A stretch of 64,000 nucleotides of DNA from an uncultured Gemmatimonadaceae bacterium (GCA_963829055.1 CAWHHI010000020.1:96001-160000), one strand, 5' to 3'; positions 29,845 to 56,561 are shown, counted from the stretch's first letter. Numbers and translations are program-made. The notes: a model not told the origin generated them from the letters alone.

Positions 29845-32155
29845 CTACGCGGCGGATCCTCCTCGCGATCCAGGCGAGTGAGGCGATGCACGCAGACGAT
29901 CGATGGGACTGCGACGATCCGTCCTTTCGCCGGGCCACCAGTTCCACCGCCCTGCGAGCACCAGCAACGCTGGACTCACCGCCAAACGCATCACCGTCGC
30001 ATCGAGCAACACCGCGACGGCGAGCGCGAAGCCGAGCATCTTCATCAGCAGAAACTCCCCGAACATGAACGCGCCGAACACCACGAGCATGATCGCCGCC
30101 GCGCTCGTGATCAGTCGTCCAGTGTGCACCAGCCCGGAAGCGATCGCGTCGCGCTCGCCGAGGCCGGCCAGACGCGCCTCACGCACACGCGCGACGAGAA
30201 ACACCTCGTAGTCCATGCTCAGACCGAAAACGACACAGAAGACGAGCACCGGAATCGCCGGAAAGATGCCGTCGAGCGGACCTGCCACTCCCAGCAGCGA
30301 CGCGCCGATCCCATCCTGAAAGACGACCGTCACGGCGCCGAACGCGCCAGCTACTACCAACAGGTTGAGCACGATCGCCTTGAGCGGCACGAGCACCGAC
30401 CGAAAGCCGACCGCGAGCACGAGAAAGGTCGCGACTACGATCAGCATCACCACCTGCATGAAACGCGATCGCCCCGCAACCGCCGCCTCGTAGTCGACGT
30501 TGAGCGCCGGAAGTCCGCCAACGCTGAGACGTGCTGCTCCCACGGGAGTGACCATCAACGGTTGCACGGAGCGAATGCGCCTGACGAGCGCCGCGAGGTC
30601 GTGCGGCGTCGTTGCTTCGCGCGGAATTACCTCCAGCAGTGCGACACGCCCATCGCGGCTGACGAACGATCGTCGCACGTCGTCCGGAAGCGCCGCGAGC
30701 AACGCCTCTCTCGCTATCAGACTGCCCATCGGCGCGAGCAGCCCAGGCAGAGACCGCACGCGCTCCACCGCGGAATCAGCAACGAGCGAACGCGCGAGAC
30801 GAGTGGTTGCCGCCCAACCGCTGTCATCCACCGCTGAGACGCCGCGCGGGAATTCCAGCGTCAGGCGGATGGTCTGGACGACAGCACTCCGGCCCATCGC
30901 TCCGAGAGAGCGCAGCGCGATAGCCGACTCCATCTCCTTCGGGAGCCAGTCCCCGCGCGGCTGCGTCGCATTCAGCCGCAAGCCCTGCCACGCCAACAGG
31001 CATACCGGAAGACCTGACAACAGCAGTACGCGGCTTGGATGACGCGTGACGAAGTCAGCCCACGCACGCCATCCAAATCCGGAGCGCGACGCGTCTCTGC
31101 ATGACGCGCAAGCGTCCTGCGTCTACCCGGTGGCCGAGGGCCGCCAGAATTCCCGGAAGCAGCGTCGTTGCCACGAGCATCGAGACGCCAGTCACGAGCA
31201 GTCCGCCAATCGCCACCGAGCGCAGCTCGTTGACGGGCATCACGGCCAGCGCACTGAAGCCGATCGCTACCGCGCATCCCGCCAGAAGAATCGTTGGTCC
31301 GGCATGACGGAGGGCCTCGCGTGCCGCGAGCTCACGCTCATGCCCAACGCGCAACTCCTCACGGAAGCGCGCGAGCACCAGCAGCGAGTAGTCGATGCCG
31401 AGTCCCAAACCGATCATCGTGACGACGTTCTGCAGCAGAATCGACAGCGACCACGCATGCGCGACGAACGCGGCGATGCCTAACGTCACGCCGATTGCGA
31501 GCAGCGCGCCGGCCACTGGCAGAAACGCGGCGACGATTGCGCCGAACGCAACGAACAGCAACACCAGCGTCACCGGAGCCGCACGCCACTCGGCGCTCCG
31601 CGCATCAGCCGCGCTCGTCCGGCGGAGGTCGGCGTTGAGCGCCACTTGTCCGGTCCATCGCATCGTCGCGGCGGGATGGTCGCGCCGGAGCGCTATCTCG
31701 AATCGGCGCGTCGCCTGGCGCAGCGTGTCGAGCAGTACATCTGCCTGACGCTGCTCGTCGAGACCCACGATCATGAATGTGCCACGCGCGGTGTCACTCC
31801 GCGTGTCGACGAAGAGCGGCTCGTGTCCATCGAGATAGGAGATCACGCGAGTCACGCCGCGAATCGCCTGCACCGAGTCGACGAGCGTGCGCAACACATC
31901 GCCGCCGAGCGGTGTTTGTGGCGATGGAACACCCGTCGCCGCCAGAACGACGGACTGCGCGAACGGCGACTGGAAGCGGCGCGCCAGCTGTTCATCCACC
32001 GCTGCGGATTCGCTTCCGTCCACACGTGCGGCGACCCGCAACACGGATTCGATTCGCCGTGCCCTGGGCAACAGGACTACGCAGGCGAGGATCCACGCCA
32101 GTGCAATGAATCCACGGCGGCGAACGATGATCGCCGCGAGCGTCGCGCCGCTCAT
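29845..32155 (-). CDS. MMPL/RND-family transporter (frameshift near 31050)
   Basis: GLGLGIDYSLLVLARFREE, GLSMDYEVFLVARVRE, TGRLITSAAAIM, GRWNWW. Confidence 0.92.
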
Positions 32156-33280
32156 ACGAGCGCGATCTCGTAGTGCAGCGGCCTATCCGCCAATGATGGG
32201 CCAGCGTAGTCGCCGCTCGTCGTGTAGATGAAGGCGTTGACGTCCGTCGGTTGCGCAAAGAGCCCGTTCAACGCGGCGCAGAGAGGGTCGCGCACATCCA
32301 AACCGATGGTCGCGAACGCATACCCAGCGTCGCGCAGCTCGGCGTAGCTCGAGCGCACCAGCGCTCTCAGCACCTCCGGTGCTTCACCCGGAACGCAAAC
32401 GTTGTACGCCGTGCAGTAGGGCAGCAATTCGCCCACGTCAGGGAGCAACATACCCTGCGTCACAGTCGCCGCACCGTTCAGCAGCGCGCGCGCAACGCGA
32501 AGTCGACGTGAGTAACGCATAACGCGCGATTGCTTGAAGGTCGCCTGGTCCCACCAGGCCATGAAGCCGACCAGCCGGCCGGTCGCATCGCGCGCCAGGC
32601 GATAGCTCGAGATGTCCAGGCCAGGTGCGCTCGCGATCCAGCTCGCGAACGTTGCGGCGGTGAGCACCGGTGTGAGTTGACGCGTAGGACCCACTCGGCG
32701 CCAGAGCTCCAACATCTCGTCAATGTCGCGCGATGTCGCCGTCGAAACTCGCAAACCACTTTCCTTGAACGCACGAGGAAAGAGCAGCGGTATGGAGAAC
32801 GCGCGAATGGTCGCGAAGCGCGCGACGCCCGGCGTCGTTCCTCGCCCGGATGTTCGGCGCTCCATCGCGCGGTTTCCGGCGAGAACGGTGAGCAAGATCG
32901 GCGTGTCGGGGCCGCCCATGTCGAGAAGCGCGGCCATGGTCCATCTGATAAGCGCGTCAGCGACCCCGGTACCGCGCATCGTCGGAATCACCTTGAGATC
33001 GCCCGCATAGAACGTCCGCCGCTCGACGCCGTGCAGATACGCGCTTCCGCTCGGCGCCCATCACACACCCGACGACGCGCCCATCGACCTCGGCAACGCC
33101 GACGCGCCACTGATTTCCCTCGAGTCGATTGAGCTGGAAGAAATCGGGATCCCGCGTTATGCGGAGGGTGATGTCACCTTCCATTGGACACGAGGCGGCG
33201 ATCGCTCTGAGTGCCGCATCGTCATCGTCCACGGCGTCACGCACCCGGACGCTCGTGGCCGACATCGCCGTCGCCGTCAT
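32152..33280 (-). CDS. GNAT-fold acyltransferase (frameshift near 33040)
   Basis: PMEGDITLRITRDPDFF, YAGDLKVIP.MRGTGVA acyl-CoA-binding motif; double-GNAT length. Confidence 0.75.
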
Positions 33281-34456
33281 TGATGCGACTCAGCACGAAC
33301 GCGACACAATGCGAACCGACGCTGCACCACGCTGCGGTCGCGCCGCATCATCGTTTCTCCACGCACTCGGTCTTCTGTGATCACGTGCTGGAAACGCGGC
33401 GGGACTTCCGTCCACCCGACGAAGTTCCGAAAGCACAGCGTCGCATTCGGCGCCGCGGTGCGAACGATCTCCGCAAACAGCAGGTCGACGTCACGCGGCT
33501 CGATCCACTCGCAGATATTGGAGATCGCGAATCCCGTCACGCTCCCAGCGGGAAGACCGCGGAGGTGATCGGTGATCGTCCCGTCCACGAGCGTCAGTCG
33601 TTCGCGCGACGTCGCTACCGACGCGCACGCCTCCGTCACTGAGGTATGGCGGCACGCCGCCGGCGGCGTCCACCGGGTATTGGCCGGTGAGCATGTGATG
33701 CAGGAAGTAATTGTCCCGCACCGACAGCTCCGTCAGCGCATGCTCGGCCTGCGAGCGGAAATGGTCGGCGAAGCTCGGTCGCTCGAGGTGCGCGAAGAAC
33801 GCGGGGTCGTAGGCCCGTCGGAAGACAGCCCGATTCAATAGCAGATGAAAGAACGCGCGCCACCTGGCGGTATTCCATTCGCTCTCGAAGAGCGAGCGTT
33901 GCACGTTCAGGGTGTCGGACGCAAGCATGCGCTCGATGCGCGCGCGCGGATGCACAGCAACGCGTAGCATCCGCACCACCGTTCGGATGAAGCGCTCGGT
34001 CACACCGGCGTTGAGCACGCCGTCGGCAATGCCCAGGCGGTGTGCGTCCCAATACGCGAGCGCCGGTTGCGTGAGACCCGCGCGCAGCTCTCGTACGCCG
34101 CAAGGCGCGCCCGGCGCCGAGCCGGGTGTTGCACCGAGGAACGCGAGCGACTCCGCCCGTGAAAGCACGGTCAGCGCAGCGACCTTGAGCTCGATGAGAT
34201 GATTCTGTGTGCGATTGACGTCCACCGCGGTGACGTGACCGACGCCCGCCGCGAGCAGTGAGAGCGCCGTGCAACCGCCCGAGCCCACGATGACGATGGA
34301 GTCATCCGGACCAGGCGCCAGCGCTTCGATCTCGAGCCGCGGATCCTCGCGCACCTGCGCGAAGTACAGGCGGTCGTCCACAGCGCTGGGCAACGAGAGC
34401 CGCTTGACGTGCGACGCGGCCTGCGCGGCGGTGACCGGAGGTGTCAGGACGCGCAT
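33277..34456 (-). CDS. BtaA/DUF3419 SAM-dependent 3-amino-3-carboxypropyl transferase-like protein (frameshift near 33640)
   Basis: YFAQVREDPRLE, GSGGCTALSLL, AVDVNRTQNHLIELK, NYFL, SNICEW. Confidence 0.8.
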
Positions 34457-34994
34457 GCGAGCTCTGGCCACTCGTAGTCGCTGAGCAACTGCTTGCGGAT
34501 CTCCGCATCGACGGCGCTGTACCGGCGCATCAACGCCGGTACCGCGGTCGTTGCGCCCGGTCGGGAATCGAGCCACTCTTTCACCCACGAGAGATGCCCC
34601 CGCTCGTCGGCGAGCATGCGGCGCAGCGTCGCTTGCACGCGCGGATGCGTGCGCGGCGGTGCAGATGCATGACGAAGTGGCGATACACTCCGCGCTCGAA
34701 GACCTGCGTGAGTGCCAACACCTCGAGCAGCGACGTCGGAGCACCGATGGCGGCAGCGTAGCGCGCCTGATACGTGTCCGTCGTCGGACGCGGACGACCG
34801 CCGACGGCGACGATCGTCTCCGTCCACAGCTGGGCGTGCAGCACTCTTCGGCGCTATGCGGTGAGACGCAGAATGAGCTCCGGGTCGCGCACGTGTTGCA
34901 CGAGGCGTCCGAGCACCAGGCCGCCGTGCAGCTCCGAGGCGCGGTAGAAGTTCAGGAGCGTGAGCTCACGCTCGGTGATTTCGAGCATGCTCAT
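34444..34994 (-). CDS. Ferritin-like di-iron protein 2 (reconstructed across frameshifts)
   Basis: Own translation MSMLEITERELTLLNFYRASELHGG...HSAEE.LHAQLW...QVFER...DERGH; ATG overlaps the upstream TGA. Confidence 0.75.
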
Positions 34995-35740
34995 GATCCG
35001 CCCTCCAGTTCCATCTTGAAGTGATCGACGATGCGCATGCCGCAGAGCCGCTCGATCCGCGTCGCGAAAGTCCGGATGGCCACGTCGTCGCCCTCCATCG
35101 CGATCGGAACGTCTCCCACTGCCTCTTCGCCGTAATGGTGAAAGTCCACGGCCGCGCGAAGTACCACGGGCACGAGGTCAGGATGCGCCGCGATACGTTG
35201 CGCGATGAGGTCCGACGCGCCCTGAGCGTGACGCACCTCGTCGGCGGCGATGAGCGCCAGCAGTGCCTGGAGCTGCGGCTCCCGTGCTTGCTCGCCGAGT
35301 CGGCGGAAGAAGTACGCGGCGAGGTGCTCGCTGAGCATGAACTCGACGAGCGGAGTCACGAGGTCCGACGGATCGAGGTCGCCGCGATCGGCGCGCTGCC
35401 GGATCTGTCGGAGCTCATCGTCGGTGATCCGCGGCTCGTACCCGACCGCGTCGAGGTACATGCGAAGCGCGTGGAAGTGCTTGAAGCCCTCGTACATCTC
35501 CAGCGAGAATACGACGCCCGCGTCGATGTCGTCCCAGGCGAAGCGGATGAGCCGCGACAGGTTGACCGGATGGAACGACTCGATGAGCGCGGCGCTGCGC
35601 AGCTTGGCGAGGATGTCCGGCTGCGCCAGCGCTTGCGCGCGGTCGATCTCAGTCCACCGCACGTCGCGCTCCACCGACCACGTCGCACGGTCGGCGGCGC
35701 GAGCATGCCGCGCGTAGAGCGAGCCGGCCAGTTCAATCAC
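34991..35740 (-). CDS. Ferritin-like di-iron protein 1 (acyl-ACP desaturase-like ligand pattern)
   Basis: LIESF, EGFKH, LSEH, DEVRH; WSVERDVRW N-terminus. Confidence 0.8.
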   Translation of the reverse strand: MIELAGSLYARHARAADRATWSVERDVRWTEIDRAQALAQPDILAKLRSAALIESFHPVNLSRLIRFAWDDIDAGVVFSLEMYEGFKHFHALRMYLDAVGYEPRITDDELRQIRQRADRGDLDPSDLVTPLVEFMLSEHLAAYFFRRLGEQAREPQLQALLALIAADEVRHAQGASDLIAQRIAAHPDLVPVVLRAAVDFHHYGEEAVGDVPIAMEGDDVAIRTFATRIERLCGMRIVDHFKMELEGGS

Positions 35741-35762
35741 CGTCAGTCATGTCGCACCTCCA

Positions 35763-36656
35763 CTAGCGCATTGACGGCGGAATGGCCGGCCACCCGTCGG
35801 CATCCGGCCCATGCCTCACGAGGAACGCGAGCAGCCAGCGCTCGAGCCCGAAGGCGACACACGCCGTGATGGCAGGCTTGCCACTGGGCAGCCTGATGTC
35901 GAACGCCTCGCCGAAAAACGTTTCGTGCAGATTGAACGACGAGGCAGCGATGGTGCTGCTCGGACCGACGGGCAGGAGCAGCTCGTGCTTCAGCTCCTTG
36001 AGCTGCTGGAGGACCTGCTTGGCGCGTGCACCCGGCTTGAAGAACGGGTCCGTCGCCACGACGAGCGTCGGCTCGAGATCGAGCGACCGGGCGAAGTCCG
36101 TTACGCGCTCGGTGGATCGCTCGAGGAAGTCACGTGCGTCGTCGTCGGACCCGATGCAGACGATCTCGCGCATCGTGAACGCCCAGCCGCGCTCCAGCGC
36201 GGCGTGTCGCGTGCCCTCGTGACGCCAGCACTCTGCTTGCGCAGTCACGAACTTCGCTCGATCGATGCTCGTGCCCGCGAGCGCGGCGTATACGTGGTAG
36301 CAAACCGCTGGATTGAGCGCGGCGTCAGGCGGTGCCGACGCCTCGCGCAGGACATCCGGCTTGCCACGCTCGGCCACTGTGCGCAGCGTGTCCTCCTCGT
36401 CTCTCAAATGCGAGGCGACCGTGAGCCAGTGCGGGAAGGACGCGAAGTACTCGGCACGGGCGAGCGTCGCGAAGTCGATCGCCGGCGGCACGCGCCAGTC
36501 GTCGGAGGTCTCGAGCCCGCAGAGCGCCGCGATCGCGCGCTCGAGATCGCGAAGGAGGCGAGCGGCATCGCCGCGCAACGCCGTGACACCTGGCGCCACA
36601 TCCCACAGCTCGCCGCGTGCGGAGAGCGCGCTCACGATGTCGTCACGCTGCCGCAT
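35763..36656 (-). CDS. Amino acid:[carrier protein] ligase, SerRS catalytic-domain homologue lacking the tRNA-binding domain
   Basis: YFASFPH, PAVCYHVY, CWRHEG, FTMREIV, ATDPFF, SFNLH..FFG, TACVAFGLERW. Confidence 0.88.
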   Translation of the reverse strand: MRQRDDIVSALSARGELWDVAPGVTALRGDAARLLRDLERAIAALCGLETSDDWRVPPAIDFATLARAEYFASFPHWLTVASHLRDEEDTLRTVAERGKPDVLREASAPPDAALNPAVCYHVYAALAGTSIDRAKFVTAQAECWRHEGTRHAALERGWAFTMREIVCIGSDDDARDFLERSTERVTDFARSLDLEPTLVVATDPFFKPGARAKQVLQQLKELKHELLLPVGPSSTIAASSFNLHETFFGEAFDIRLPSGKPAITACVAFGLERWLLAFLVRHGPDADGWPAIPPSMR

Positions 36657-36930
36657 TGTCGTCTCCGGTAACCGTATCGGCGCCGGCGAACGCGTCGGCG
36701 ATGTGCCGCACCGTCCGGAAGTGATCCATACGAATGCGCGCGTCGGGAATGCGCATGTCCAACGCGTGCTCCGTCCACGCGATGAGCTGCAGGACGCGAA
36801 TGGAGTTGATGAGCCCATTGGCGAAGAGCGGCGTGTCGGCATCGACCGTGACGCCGGCGGGAACGAGCGTCGCGTTGATCCACTCCACTGTCCGCACCAC
36901 GAACGTGGCGTGATCCATCGGCGCGCTCAT
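36643..36930 (-). CDS. Acyl/aminoacyl carrier protein
   Basis: DTPLFANGLINSIRVL...IPD...DHFRTV; Ser at the phosphopantetheine position. Confidence 0.85.
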   Translation of the reverse strand: MSAPMDHATFVVRTVEWINATLVPAGVTVDADTPLFANGLINSIRVLQLIAWTEHALDMRIPDARIRMDHFRTVRHIADAFAGADTVTGDDNAAA

Positions 36931-38030
36931 GCGACCCTCGCGATCGGACTCGCTGCGCCCTGTGCGTGCATGTGATCGAGCATCGGGATCCAGAAGTCGC
37001 GGACGGGTGGCGCGCCACGACCGAGCAATGCTTCGGCGTTCGTCGTGTCGAAGCGCTTGGGCAGGGCCAGCTGCGGGACGAAGTGCGACAGCGCTCCCGC
37101 TATCCGCTTGAGCGACGCGTCACCGACGTCGGCGATCGTGCGCTCGAACAGCGAATACGTCGCGAGGTCCGTGATGGCGGGCCGAACGATCCCACGTTTG
37201 CGCCACGCTGGGTTCGTGGCCCAGCGCTCGTACGTGATGTCGAGCAGCTCGACGAGTGGCAGCGCGCCTTCACCCGCGCAGAGGTGAACCACTTTCCCAG
37301 CGGCGTCGTCGCGCAGCGCGAGCCGAGCGATGCCGTCGGCGACGAACGATGTCGTCACGGCGTCGACGGTGGAGCCCACGACGCCGGGCATCATCGCCAC
37401 CAATCCGTGGCGATAGAGATTGAGAGCACGATGCACGGCGTTTGTCTGCGTGACCTGGCCGGAAACGTCGTCGCAGACGACGGTGCTCGAGCGGAGGATG
37501 ACCCAGCTCGCCGCCTGGTCCATCACGAGTCGCTCGGCCTCGTACTTCGACTGCTCGTAGGCGTTCACCCAGCCGGCGTTCGCGGCGTGGAGATCTTCGG
37601 CGATCACGCCTGTCCGCCGACCAGCCACGAACGCCGTGCTGACGTACGCCACGCGCACGGGCGTTTCGCAATCATCAGCGATCTCCAACACGCGCTGCGT
37701 GCCGAGCGTGTTTACGGCGCGCGCGCGATCGAGCGGCGACGAGAACGTCGTGTCGGCGGCGAGATGAACGATCGCCGTCACGTCGCGGCAAATCGCGGCG
37801 CGCGCGTTAGGCTCGATGCCGAGCCCGTCGGCGCAGAGATCGCCGTGCACGGGGATGACACGACTCTGCTTGCCGAGCTCGCGTGCTGTGCGACGCCAGC
37901 GGTCGACGTCGCGCACGAGCACGAAGGCGCGGAGCCGGGAATCGGCCGCGAGCAGGCGCGCCAGCACGTCGCGGCCGAGCAGGCCGGTGGCGCCGGTGAC
38001 GAGAATCGAATGATCGGCGGACATGGTCAT
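36927..38030 (-). CDS. Extended SDR, thioester reductase / fatty acyl reductase type
   Basis: TGATGLLG, IVHLAA, NTLGT, YVSTAFVAG, YEQSK. Confidence 0.88.
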   Translation of the reverse strand: MTMSADHSILVTGATGLLGRDVLARLLAADSRLRAFVLVRDVDRWRRTARELGKQSRVIPVHGDLCADGLGIEPNARAAICRDVTAIVHLAADTTFSSPLDRARAVNTLGTQRVLEIADDCETPVRVAYVSTAFVAGRRTGVIAEDLHAANAGWVNAYEQSKYEAERLVMDQAASWVILRSSTVVCDDVSGQVTQTNAVHRALNLYRHGLVAMMPGVVGSTVDAVTTSFVADGIARLALRDDAAGKVVHLCAGEGALPLVELLDITYERWATNPAWRKRGIVRPAITDLATYSLFERTIADVGDASLKRIAGALSHFVPQLALPKRFDTTNAEALLGRGAPPVRDFWIPMLDHMHAQGAASPIARVA

Positions 38031-39004
38031 GCCTCCAACGCCAGCGCCGTCCAGTGCGCGCCGTAGCCGTAAGAGAAAAGGAGCAGACGATCTCCGGGAC
38101 GCACGCTTCCGTCGCTCACCGCGTCGCGCAGATTGATGAAGTTGTCGCCGGCAAGCGTGTGTCCGATTCGCGCGATGTTCCGGCACCACAGACGCTCGCG
38201 TGGAATTCCCGTGAGGCCAAGCAGGATCTCCCAGCTGCGGATGCTGATGTTGTGGGGGATCACCCAGGTGACTTCGTCGGGGCGCCACCCCGCGCGTCGG
38301 AGCGTCTCCGCGATCACGTGCTTGGCGGTCGGGAAGTACGACGCGACGATCTCGTTGCGCATCGCGTCTCCCTGCCAGTAGTAGCCCTTGGTCGTGTGCG
38401 CCGACGCGAGAATGCGATTACGATCGGCGTTGTGGTCGACGAGCACCGCGCACGCCGCGTCGGCGGTGCAGTTGTAGATCGCCTCGCGGCCTGCGCCGAC
38501 GGGAAAGAACTCCGACGACACGCAGAGCACCCGTCGCGCATCTCCCGTTTCAACGAGGGCGCGCGCGACGCGCACCGCGCTGAAGAGCGACGTGCACGCC
38601 AATTGATCGAGCGCGAAGGTGGACGCGCACTCGAGGTCGAGGTCGTACTGCAGCCGCGTTGCGGGATACTGAAAGCGTTGCGTGCTGGAGATGTGACTCG
38701 TTGCGTCCACGGCGCTTCCGGCCGGCGCGAAAGCGACCGACGGCGTGCCGCAGTACAGCAGCGTATCGATGCTGTCGGGCGCGACGGAGTATTCGTGCAG
38801 CAGCGCCCTGGCCGCTTCGAGGGCCAGCGAGTACGGAGTCTCCTCTTCGGCGACGTACACATGGGAGAAGCCGAACTGTTCGAGTAGCGCGGGATCGCTT
38901 TCGAGCTGTCCAAGCGCGTGGAGCTCGCGCAGCGAGCGCCGTTGCGCAGGCAGCGCATACGCGATTGCGGAGATGCCAGCGATTCCGGGCGTCACGGCGG
39001 TCAC
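38027..39004 (-). CDS. KAS III (FabH)-like condensing or acyl-transfer enzyme
   Basis: ACTS (Cys), PHN, IGHTLAGD, GYGAHW; AGGAG RBS before GTG at 39004. Confidence 0.88.
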   Translation of the reverse strand: MTAVTPGIAGISAIAYALPAQRRSLRELHALGQLESDPALLEQFGFSHVYVAEEETPYSLALEAARALLHEYSVAPDSIDTLLYCGTPSVAFAPAGSAVDATSHISSTQRFQYPATRLQYDLDLECASTFALDQLACTSLFSAVRVARALVETGDARRVLCVSSEFFPVGAGREAIYNCTADAACAVLVDHNADRNRILASAHTTKGYYWQGDAMRNEIVASYFPTAKHVIAETLRRAGWRPDEVTWVIPHNISIRSWEILLGLTGIPRERLWCRNIARIGHTLAGDNFINLRDAVSDGSVRPGDRLLLFSYGYGAHWTALALEA

Positions 39005-39438
39005 GAAAGCTCCTGTTTGTTCCCGGTGATCTCGCCGATGTCTCCGATCTCGAGCACGGCTGCGAGCAGGGGGCGTGGGTGGGAGACAGCGCACAACATC
39101 GGCGCGCGCCGTTATCCACGTGTTATCCAGCCGAACGCCCTGAAGTGCATGGGACTCAACGTGGCGAGCGACATCGGCTTCCTCGTCTCTGACGGACACG
39201 TGCACGATGCCGGTCGGCCGACGTTTTACGATATCGGTCGTGTTACGTAGTGGCCGGGCAGGCAATACGTAGTGGCGCCTTGCGAGAAACGTCCATTACG
39301 CATGCCGGACAAGGCGACCAGCTCGAGCGAGTCGATCCGCAGTCATCGACATCCACGTTCACGGCACTCCCACTCCGGCGGGCGCCCTTGGCAAGCGGTC
39401 GACCGTGAGCGAGCCCTCCCCGCACTCGCTCTCGTGGG

Positions 39439-54624: not shown

Positions 54625-55649
54625 CGAAGGGCTCCGGATGGAAGTTTTGTCGAGGGGTCCACCTGGAGACGCGAGAAAGCGGATGGAACGGGGCCAGCTC
54701 CCGGCGGACGGGGGGGCGCAGGGGCCGATCCGAGGATCACGTCGCGCGGCGGACATCGGTGCATCGAGTCGGGCGGGCCGGATCGCCCTCGCCGGCAGCG
54801 GGCCGACCGATGGCGATTGGATCAGTCACTGCTGCGGGCAAGAACGGCAGCGGCGGCTCCTGGCTGAAGCGCTGGCGCGGCGGCGACCGTGCGCGATTCG
54901 ACAAGCGTCAGGGAGACCCTGCCGATCGCGACTCAGCTCGAACATCGCGACGAGGCGAGCCGCGCTCGACCGCGTCGAGCCGAGGTCGACCGCGCGCGTC
55001 GTCGCGGACACAGCGAGGGGCATCACGCCACCCGCCTGGCGAGTGCGCGGCGATGATCGGGCGTGATCTGATCTCGGCGCCGGCCGCAGCGTGCGCGAGA
55101 TCTCGAGGTGCAGCTCGAGCGACGCGGGCGCAGATGACACCGAGCAGGTGAGGCGATGGTGCGTCCGGCCGCGCTGCGCGCGTCGTCGCGCGCGTCGATC
55201 CGAAGTCGTGTCGCGCGCCGCAGATCGCGCGATGCTGACGCTGATGTCGCCGCGGTCGCCCGAATCGGTCGCGAGCGGCGTCGTCGAGCCGGCCGCGCGG
55301 CGCGAATCGCGCCAGTGCTGGTACTGCAGGGAGAGACGTCCAGGTCGACCGCGGAGGACGCGGAGCGTGGGCCGGCGCCGATCGGGCAAGCCGTCGACTA
55401 CAGTGAGCCCGTGGCCGATCACGTCTAAGACGAGCCGCGGTCGCTCGAAGAGTCGAGCAAGCAACTGCCCGACGGCGTACAACGCGCCCGACCGGACTCG
55501 AGAGACGTGGTCGAGACGCTGGCGCAGTGGATCCGCGCCACTGAGCCAACGCCACGCGAATCAGCAGCGTGGACACCCCGAATCGAACGCGCCGAGTCGG
55601 CGCCGCCGGAGTCGCGTTAGGCTCCCGTAGAGCCCGGGCGGCGCGCGCG

Positions 55650-56481
55650 CGCCAGCGCCGCCCGACGTCGGCAGCAGCGACGCATCCATGCGCGACGACC
55701 ATGCGTCGCCCGGCCGCACGCCGACGATCACCTCCCATACGGGTCGAGGATCATCGCGTTCCCGGTGCGAATCTCGTCGTCGTCAGCCCGATGCCGTTGC
55801 TGAACACCAGGAACATCCCGTTGTCGTGCGCGCGGCTCGGAAGCCAGCGCATGAGCCACGCACGCCCTTGATCCGCAGAGTCCGCACGAATCGCGGCGGA
55901 TCTCGCGTCGACGCTCCCAGATCGCGGGGTCCACGGCTTCATCGCGCGCGGACTGACCGAGTTGCACCCGCCCGTCTGATGCGGAGCGAGCAGAATCTCG
56001 GCGCCGAGCAGCGCGGTGGCACGCGCGTTTCGACAATGTTGTTGTCGTAGCAAATGAGCGCACCGACGCGGCAACCGGCGGGTCGAAGACGGATATCGGC
56101 ACCTCGGAGAGAAACGGGCCACGAACACGTGCAGCTCCGGGAACCGCAAGCGTGCCGTCGGGCATCGCCACGACGTGGCGTTGAGAAGCGGCATCATCGG
56201 CGCGCTCGATCAGCCCGGCCGACCGTCACGCCGTGCTCGCGCGACAGGCGCAGGAGCTCCTCGGTGCACGGTCCATTGGCACAGGCTCGGCGAGCGCCTC
56301 GAACGCCTCGCGTGACAGTTTGCGCACGTGCCAGTACCCGGTGAGGCACATCTCCGGGAACGCAATGATCTCGACGCCTTGCGGGCAGCGTCCGCAACGA
56401 AATGCCGGACGCGCCGAGATTGTACGCCTTGTCGCCCGGCGCGTGCTGGAACTGAACGGCGGCTACCCGAATGTCGCGCAT
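55650..56481 (-). pseudogene. Nitrilase / carbon-nitrogen hydrolase, heavily frameshifted
   Basis: MRDIRVAAVQFQH.PGDKAYNL, FPEMCLTGYW, EILLAPHQTGGC, RAHDNGMFLVFSNG, GNAMILDPYGR; 3' end approximate. Confidence 0.8.
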
Positions 56482-56561
56482 GGGCCAACGCTAACGGATC
56501 GGCTGATGCGAACGCCAGTCGAATCAATGGAAAAAAAAGAAGAAAGGGGCCGATGCATCGT

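Follow-up and report, generated by a model that had tools for sequence, protein, structure and literature searches.

The stretch of DNA analyzed here, a 64,000-nucleotide window (C20:96001-160000), is part of a 7.8 Mb genome that is 86% complete and whose closest named relatives are metagenome-assembled genomes (MAGs) of the Gemmatimonadaceae. Pfam and NCBIfam scans together with fold matches identify nine genes between positions 29845 and 39004, all on the minus strand, that may encode a pathway for a glycine-derived lipid. From the upstream end of the cluster they are:

38027..39004, minus strand: KAS III-like enzyme of 325 residues (Pfam ACP_syn_III_C, E = 3.7e-18; Cys137-His282-Asp287)
36927..38030, minus strand: stand-alone thioester reductase, an extended SDR resembling the R domain of nonribosomal peptide synthetases (NRPSs) (NAD_binding_4, E = 7.7e-41)
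36643..36930, minus strand: carrier protein ACP1, 95 residues, with Ser43 (PP-binding, E = 2e-5, above the cut-off)
35763..36656, minus strand: amino acid:[carrier protein] ligase, SerRS-like, 297 residues (tRNA-synt_2b / NF005479)
34991..35750, minus strand: ferritin-like enzyme 1 (FER1), about 250 residues, with an acyl-ACP-desaturase/R2lox-like fold and Gly85
34444..34994, minus strand: ferritin-like enzyme 2 (FER2), about 185 residues, with two ExxH motifs and an extra His; three indels here
33277..34456, minus strand: predicted DUF3419 (BtaA-family) alkyltransferase dependent on S-adenosylmethionine (SAM) (PF11899 matched by both pieces)
32152..33280, minus strand: tandem GNAT acyltransferase, about 377 residues, N-myristoyltransferase-like (Acetyltransf_9 and _1 in the copy at the related locus L014)
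29845..32155, minus strand: predicted MMPL/RND lipid exporter, about 770 residues (MMPL matched by both halves)

The initial annotation had placed nine same-strand genes of these families here, and the Pfam and NCBIfam scans bear this out; support from Pfam is weak for both ferritin-like proteins, whose assignment is confirmed by fold. The five ATGA stop/start overlaps that it reported can all be read in the sequence (38030-38027, 36930-36927, 34994-34991, 33280-33277 and 32155-32152). Two more junctions overlap by 13-14 nt, with an ACP1/ligase overlap of 14 nt. A promoter and terminator scan of the cluster gave no signal above shuffled sequences. Metatranscriptome contigs touched 28 of 30 bins and were not used, since contigs from a small-share RNA run are no evidence of transcription.

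Frameshifts had previously been noticed in FER2, which is indeed broken by its three indels, but the DUF3419, GNAT and MMPL genes are broken as well, with breaks across frames near 33636, 33043 and 31100, respectively. Single-base slips also occur at the start of FER1 and the end of the ligase. All four broken genes are intact in the closest loci (L013-L015, ligase identity 76-82%), and short-read contigs from four runs, which represent related strains and not the source sample, carry frame-restoring indels at 31100, 33043, 33636/7, 34654, 34843 and 34860 and single-base differences at 35745 and 35774. A rough test of 42 other genes of the genome, all with close relatives, found 19 likewise split across frames. 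Because the relatives are intact, the short-read contigs restore the frames and so many other genes are split, the breaks in the four genes are most likely assembly errors. A phosphopantetheinyl transferase (PPTase) gene precedes the KAS gene in L014 and many other relatives and is missing here (window 39005-39160), where its place measures about 180 bp versus about 690 bp in L014. Since contigs of close strains span the place, the loss at the cluster looks real. Two PPTases are encoded elsewhere in the genome. Outside the cluster, a carbon-nitrogen-hydrolase-like gene at 55573-56482 shows 32 gap openings in 958 bases relative to L014:1707-2662, and its density of small deletions is far above that in the cluster.

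A scan of species genomes with the ligase returned 57 loci, 49 of them from named Gemmatimonadota (two MAGs yield two loci each). All nine genes occur in the same order and on the same strand in 24 of these 49 loci, which is far beyond chance, and a further 19 loci keep the order up to the contig end, so the conserved synteny that had been suggested as a check is found. Six loci are variants: four lack FER2, and in two an ICMT-like methyltransferase replaces the DUF3419, GNAT and MMPL genes. The PPTase gene often lies before the KAS gene, and many loci with all nine genes have no adjacent PPTase. In ten loci (e.g., L061:14656-15660), GNAT and MMPL are separated by an optional radical SAM/SPASM gene without a match to any curated NCBIfam family. 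The distribution of the cluster is patchy, with the FER1 profile hitting seven of 300 sampled genomes of the phylum, all within the family of the window (7 of 70); inspection of three of the seven found two clusters and one lone gene. Related clusters also occur in Actinomycetota, including cultured Krasilnikovia, and in Acidobacteriota. A metagenome scan with the FER2 alignment recovered mostly the same cluster type and no new contexts.

The ligase consists of a methanogen-type SerRS catalytic domain without the tRNA-binding domain. Its best solved relative is Bll0957 (structure match, E = 3.5e-39), and it scores 179.7 bits against the NF005479 equivalog, which is below the cut-off of 357. 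The Cys/Glu/Cys metal site is present: Cys119, Glu164 and Cys266, which we take to be zinc ligands, align with Bll0957 residues and are invariant in 57 aligned rows. Ala268 occupies the site of Bll0957 Ala281, where Ala is found in 53 of the 57 rows and Gly in three, with one row truncated. An Ala at this site of Bll0957 reportedly restricts the enzyme to glycine, and Gly there is said to admit serine and alanine. The pocket therefore appears to be of the glycine type, and the ligase is predicted to load glycine onto ACP1, whose phosphopantetheine Ser is present in 50 of 50 rows. A tree of 35 ligases, rooted only at its midpoint, groups those of the window's cluster type (type A) in one clade (100/99) apart from the ligases of two sister types, B and C (see below), and from those in the Bll0957 context, which we presume to be one of acyl-CoA dehydrogenase and DUF1839-type neighbors.

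Several ligases elsewhere have a Gly at the specificity site. One from a Bdellovibrionota MAG (L031:7722-10885) falls inside the type A clade and has a different context, with a JmjC protein and a hexapeptide-repeat protein fused to a carrier. Two loci on Streptomyces plasmids (L160:9221-14090 and L161:7281-12102) combine a Gly-type ligase with acyl-CoA and hydroxyacyl-CoA dehydrogenases, a carrier and an acyltransferase. We take these neighbors to be the layout for aminomalonyl-ACP formation from serine, and the Gly in both ligases fits the Ala/Gly rule; the two loci are possibly an aminomalonyl-ACP route in which a SerRS-like ligase replaces the adenylation domain.

The KAS III-like enzyme is predicted to be an ester- or amide-forming acyltransferase. 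All 54 aligned rows have its Cys137, His282 and Asp287. The position of the FabH Asn is a His in every row, with an Asp five residues on, so the Cys-His-Asn triad of FabH is absent; the equivalent of FabH His244 (His251) is kept in 49 rows and is Gln in the other five. The C-terminal 67 residues have CerJ as their best PDB match, with GHTLAGD aligned to CerJ GHVGAGD (His295/Asp300). In CerJ and ChlB3, a Cys-His-Asp triad serves acyl transfer (PMC9573744). The best PDB matches of the whole protein are FabH enzymes, and the likeness to CerJ and ChlB3 would consequently be mechanistic. Since the enzyme carries the Cys-His-Asp triad without the FabH Asn, a carbon-carbon bond of the kind implied by the "ceramide-like" product of the initial annotation is argued against. 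The adjacent reductase has the R domain of MxaA as its best PDB match (E = 5e-17) and retains YxxxK in 55 of 55 rows; its match to TIGR01746 (E = 2.5e-31) is below the cut-off.

The model of FER1, with a predicted local distance difference test score (pLDDT) of 88, matches ivy desaturase (Z = 19.1), R2lox (17.8) and the azoxy synthase VlmB (16.4) among the matches listed. Superpositions on acyl-ACP desaturases reach Z = 18-19 with a root-mean-square deviation of 3.1-4.1 over 231-238 residues at 11-15% identity, and atlas neighbors include acyl-ACP desaturase clusters; with FA_desaturase_2 it scores 13.7 bits versus 22.7. The first motif reads E84-G85-x-x-H88 in place of the EExxH of desaturases, so the protein does not contain two complete motifs. 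Gly85 is invariant in all 48 locus copies and in the best 120 of 1,628 homologs (65-89% identical), and E54, E81, E84, G85, H88, E138, D167, E168, H171 and H202 are invariant in 41 of 41 copies and the same best 120 of 1,628. FER1 seems to lack one bridging carboxylate, unless the invariant Glu81 or Glu84 supplies it.

FER2, which is intact at 182-185 residues in L013-L015, has a full ligand set. The motifs read HxxEExxH and then (D/E)ExxH; the additional His, four residues before the first Glu, recurs in 62 of the 78 distant representatives with 160 residues or more among the 150 matches listed. The model of the L014 copy (pLDDT 92.6) is a minimal bundle for which ADO-like proteins and proteins of unknown function tie at Z of about 17. 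An AAR/ADO-like alkane route through the reductase and FER2 carries little weight here, given that loci can do without FER2 and that its top fold matches tie with these unknowns. FER2 aligns weakly and along its length with the profile of AurF-like proteins (probability 51, 173 columns), and AurF and CmlI are not among the matches listed in its fold searches. The FER1 and FER2 profiles align over a stretch of only 51 columns. A predicted FER1-FER2 complex scored 0.00 and was used neither way.

The intact DUF3419 copy of L014 matches positions 8-383 of the 385 in PF11899 (214.6 bits versus a cut-off of 28.2). The protein is 24-32% identical to plasmid-borne proteins labeled DUF3419/BtaA, and no related solved structure was found. 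BtaA is the aminocarboxypropyl transferase of betaine-lipid synthesis (PMC10491745). By analogy, transfer of this group is plausible here, and no more than that, as members of two methyltransferase families occupy this slot in some variants, one of them the ICMT-like proteins, which also match PEMT. The "betaine-like" product of the initial annotation keeps its DUF3419 protein and is weakened otherwise, in that no BtaB-type N-methyltransferase gene lies beside it and a tandem GNAT gene comes next in the type A loci that extend there (no search for BtaB was made elsewhere in the genome). For a profile built from 21 copies of the GNAT, the best PDB match is glycylpeptide N-tetradecanoyltransferase (E = 0.0013, positions 56-243). 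The GNAT is seen only after the long form of DUF3419 and is gone where a methyltransferase fills the slot, which suggests that it acylates the amine introduced by DUF3419 and so favors aminocarboxypropyl transfer. The MMPL protein is intact in L014 (771 residues) and MmpL3-like, with a match to NF052608 (E = 3e-75) below the cut-off. Elsewhere in the genome (L176:3794-8792, G000:C18), another tandem GNAT of this family (32% identity) lies between genes for a Rieske oxygenase and an RnfD-like/FG-GAP/ASPIC fusion protein. In a Rhizobium plasmid cluster, the gene that follows DUF3419 was tried as GNAT kin and is not a relative.

Two sister cluster types share the core of this operon. Type B is a paralogous cluster in the same genome (G000:C3, about 348600-354200; L070:7300-13200) that is heavily frameshifted here and intact in relatives. 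Its order is KAS, reductase, a fusion of carrier and ligase, a PF12147 class I methyltransferase, FER1 and, mostly, a fusion of FER2 and a carrier, and in the relatives it is flanked by a START/cyclase-like gene, a small membrane protein and an alpha/beta hydrolase. Three Krasilnikovia genomes, one Actinomycetota MAG and one Thermoanaerobaculia MAG carry type C, as do three of 400 further genomes of the Krasilnikovia class. This type comprises genes for an AurF-family protein, a carrier, a ligase, a reductase, in most cases a PPTase, FER2, another carrier and KAS, and several copies add an acyl-CoA ligase. Nine actinobacterial or acidobacterial loci pair the AurF-family gene with the same KAS and, where the contig extends, with the ligase, reductase and FER2. 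Three type C loci include a DUF3419-GNAT pair about 51-60% identical to that of L014, and a fourth has a DUF3419 gene cut at the contig edge; MMPL is nearby in one of these four. In type C loci of the Krasilnikovia L060 kind (L060:554-7679), which have a shorter DUF3419 form without GNAT, the flanks are a flavin monooxygenase, an MFS transporter and a dimethylformamidase-beta-like protein.

An AurF-family oxygenase lies beside ligase and carrier in L060-L065, L169-L172, L066 and L163, with PF11583 above the cut-off in both AurF-type loci that were scanned (L060 and L063). In five type C genomes, FER1 searches found only one stretch of 53 residues (E = 1.8e-4), and the AurF-type profile has no match in the window or this genome; genomes may be incomplete in both cases. 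Three slots thus persist while their occupants change: an oxygenase beside carrier and ligase that is either FER1 or AurF-like; a SAM enzyme, present in all variants examined, from one of three unrelated families (DUF3419, ICMT/PEMT-like or PF12147); and an optional FER2 that is tied to a second carrier, being fused to it or beside it in the sister clusters. The exchange of FER1 for an AurF-like protein points to oxidation of carrier-bound glycine.

Similar genes are found together in Streptomyces. The type C AurF-like protein is 40% identical to one in L066 (L066:9046-12131, Streptomyces sp. NPDC127117) whose gene stands in a row with those for a ligase, a nitronate monooxygenase and a carrier. 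This row adjoins a class III aminotransferase, an inositol-monophosphatase-like gene and a MOSC protein. The arrangement is what we take to be the layout of glycine-nitronate cassettes, and it is probably a denitrification cassette of this kind. A plasmid of Streptomyces sp. NBC_00335 (L163:8735-11472) encodes a di-iron oxygenase, carrier, ligase and PPTase in surroundings that look like a highly reducing type II polyketide synthase (PKS) cluster.

The reading that we favor, at a probability of roughly 0.45, is an assembly line of stand-alone enzymes for a glycine-derived, phosphorus-free exported lipid whose glycyl unit is oxidized at nitrogen. Genes, motifs, folds, synteny and module swaps are the observed basis, from which all substrates, the sequence of the steps and the product are inferred. 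The ligase and ATP would load glycine onto the phosphopantetheine of ACP1, chemistry that is known for the family with glycine as the presumed substrate here. FER1 would then oxidize glycyl-ACP1, most likely at nitrogen to the hydroxylamine, oxime or nitronate level, in the role that the AurF-like enzyme may have in the sister clusters; this N-oxidation is placed first because FER1 occupies the same slot as the AurF-like protein. For the enteromycin class, a di-iron enzyme is described to oxidize carrier-bound glycine to an oxime or nitronate that is then O-methylated (PMC9967187 and PMC12154687). The Cys-His-Asp KAS III homolog could move a fatty acyl group to the N or O of the glycyl unit, with FER2 as a possible modifier of the acyl chain, and the reductase would free the thioester as an aldehyde or alcohol, as is typical of its family. 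The DUF3419 protein would alkylate a heteroatom from SAM, probably with 3-amino-3-carboxypropyl (the variants would methylate), after which the N-myristoyltransferase-like GNAT might N-acylate the new amine to give a second tail and MMPL might export the product. The initial annotation had already proposed a carrier assembly line free of NRPS and PKS enzymes. Its elements (acylation, oxidative tailoring, reductive release, alkylation from SAM and export through MMPL) are supported; the swap of FER1 with an AurF-like N-oxygenase had been missed.

A number of observations weigh against this pathway. The fold of FER1 is closest to acyl-ACP desaturases and R2lox, and AurF and CmlI are not among the best 50 matches listed for it, with which kinship would still be compatible. 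FER1 lacks the HxxDExxH motif of the 3-His/4-Glu site in AurF and CmlI (Ile164 stands where the extra His would be expected), has no PF11583 match and did not align at the profile level with AurF-like proteins (probability 0.1). Without the bridging Glu, di-iron chemistry might be altered or lost altogether, and the exchange of FER1 for an AurF-like protein is positional and does not prove the same chemistry. Glycine as the substrate of the ligase is predicted from a reported Ala/Gly specificity rule. The PEMT matches of the ICMT-like proteins make N- rather than O-alkylation possible, the N-myristoyltransferase match of the GNAT is weak, and the window has no second carrier, acyl-CoA ligase or PPTase of the kind found in many relatives. 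A bolder form of the proposal, to which we give modest credence at best, makes FER1 a new carrier-dependent class of di-metal enzymes with an open site that would N-oxygenate glycyl-ACP convergently with AurF. Its product would be a two-tailed lipid in which a SAM-derived homoserine is attached through a canaline-like N-O-C linkage (O-alkyl hydroxamate, oxime or nitronate). We know of no lipid class with such an N-O-C-linked homoserine.

The leading alternative, which is unlikely yet has to be taken seriously, is a route with no N-oxidation that stays closest to the idea of the initial annotation. Glycyl-ACP would be acylated and reduced to an acyl-ethanolamine, DUF3419 would form a homoserine ether, and GNAT would acylate again to give a two-tailed phosphorus-free membrane aminolipid, with FER1 and FER2 desaturating or hydroxylating the acyl chain or the linker. 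Soluble acyl-ACP desaturases as the best folds of FER1 (Z = 18-19 over about 235 residues), its neighbors in the atlas, the two acyltransferases and MmpL3-like exporter, and the aminocarboxypropyl transfer by BtaA in betaine-lipid synthesis (PMC10491745) all agree with such a lipid. It leaves unexplained why an AurF-family enzyme takes the place of FER1 beside carrier and ligase and why DUF3419 is exchanged with a carboxyl-type methyltransferase family, and the patchy cluster (7 of 70 family genomes) is unlike a bulk membrane lipid pathway. We regard it as improbable that the KAS III-like enzyme instead condenses glycyl-ACP with an acyl or malonyl group through a carbon-carbon bond, yielding a ceramide- or sphingoid-like or aminoketone backbone for reduction by the SDR and N-acylation by the GNAT. 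The intact thiolase-fold Cys, the His251 in 49 of 54 rows and the FabH enzymes at the top of the whole-protein matches are as expected for condensation, but the replacement of the FabH Asn by His with an Asp five residues on is universal and shared with CerJ and ChlB3, His251 is dispensable, and the SDR is of the thioester-reductase type.

Very little weight falls on FER1 as a di-metal halogenase in which the Glu-to-Gly change opens a halide site for a halogenated acyl amide of the columbamide kind. The invariant Gly85 recalls the open coordination site for chloride that is proposed for CylC-type di-iron halogenases (PMC12101540), and a DUF3419 gene flanks the cly halogenase cluster (PMC7923214). 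CylC-type enzymes, however, keep QExxH and HxxDExxH (PMC12101540), both of which are absent from FER1, and lose a different Glu; FER1 is also far shorter (about 250 residues versus about 450-470 for ClyC/ClyD), and its AurF-like replacement in the sister clusters keeps both ExxH motifs. We think it equally doubtful that the pathway is real in relatives and decayed here, with the frameshifts and missing PPTase as true pseudogenization. Four of the nine genes are broken, the upstream PPTase is missing both here and in close-strain contigs, and at several break sites the restoring indel is not among the matches listed for some covering runs. Set against this, the splitting of genes extends to 19 of 42 others in the genome, contigs of related strains carry restoring indels in all four genes, two PPTases lie elsewhere, and many nine-gene relatives do without an adjacent one.

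We conclude that this orphan pathway is real and widely conserved and that its natural variants are informative. It gives the ligase, a member of an enzyme family with few known roles, a candidate job in a compact and complete-looking operon that recurs in at least three versions over three phyla and is conserved across many soil Gemmatimonadota. The natural swaps are ready-made controls for individual steps: FER1 for AurF, DUF3419 and GNAT for two methyltransferase families, and the optional FER2 and radical SAM genes. The sister cluster of cultured Krasilnikovia makes the chemistry accessible without culturing Gemmatimonadota. If the proposal is true, it would add a pathway for a lipid or small molecule to the little-studied chemistry of an abundant soil phylum. 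DUF3419 would gain a role beyond betaine lipids, and a new ferritin-like metal site might also emerge.

Every part of the cluster belongs to a known family, and no characterized match was found for the gene combination. It was likewise not recognized as a characterized pathway in the initial annotation, and it is undescribed in the literature searched, which leaves room for a match in subscription journals, supplements or MIBiG, all outside the search. Its proteins lack features that define FabH, AurF, CylC, the BtaA/BtaB pair and the Bll0957 equivalog. The ligase shares its class II SerRS-like domain with the known ligases of this family (PDB 3MEY and 4H2W), Bll0957 and Bll6282 from Bradyrhizobium and Atu2573 from Agrobacterium. 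With Bll0957 it has in common the Cys/Glu/Cys site, an adjacent carrier and Ala at the specificity site, whereas it falls in a separate tree clade, scores below the NF005479 cut-off and has a wholly different neighborhood. Carrier ligases of this SerRS-like kind were reportedly first described in 2010, and to our knowledge few have a known end product.

The KAS resembles CerJ and ChlB3 (PDB 3S3L and 7EQI) in its Cys-His-Asp triad and GHxxxxD motif. It differs in its low overall similarity, in usually keeping the FabH His and in a context without a polyketide or sugar acceptor. With the BtaA/BtaB pathway to diacylglyceryl-N,N,N-trimethylhomoserine (DGTS), the cluster shares a DUF3419 SAM enzyme that is at most about 32% identical to the plasmid-borne members, is followed by a tandem GNAT and not by BtaB, and is exchangeable with ICMT-like or class I methyltransferases. 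Another pathway weighed and set aside is that of nocuolin; its methionine-derived unit is suggestive, but NocG is a Claisen enzyme with Glu/Cys/His/Asn, and DUF3419 does not appear in the main text of the nocuolin paper.

He and Ryan (2021) is the source cited for glycine-nitronate chemistry in PMC9967187 and PMC12154687. Cassettes of this type are known for the carboxamide of enteromycin, for akazaoxime/A-76356 and for the oxime of althiomycin. They and the window share the logic of a carrier-bound glycine, a ferritin-like di-iron oxygenase and a SAM alkylating enzyme. The window differs in having FER1 in place of an AurF-family enzyme and no NRPS/PKS or nitronate monooxygenase, and it adds the KAS III acyltransferase, reductase, DUF3419, GNAT and MMPL. 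Amino acid activation, a carrier, reductive release, di-iron tailoring and acylation are also combined in the fragin/valdiazen (ham), Pseudomonas pvf and columbamide (col) systems. By description, these employ NRPS adenylation-thiolation-reductase (A-T-R) modules with condensation or PKS domains, whereas in the window the steps are assigned to stand-alone enzymes from other families. The closest logic to that of the window would be found in the glycine-nitronate cassettes together with A-T-R/di-iron pathways such as those for fragin and the columbamides.

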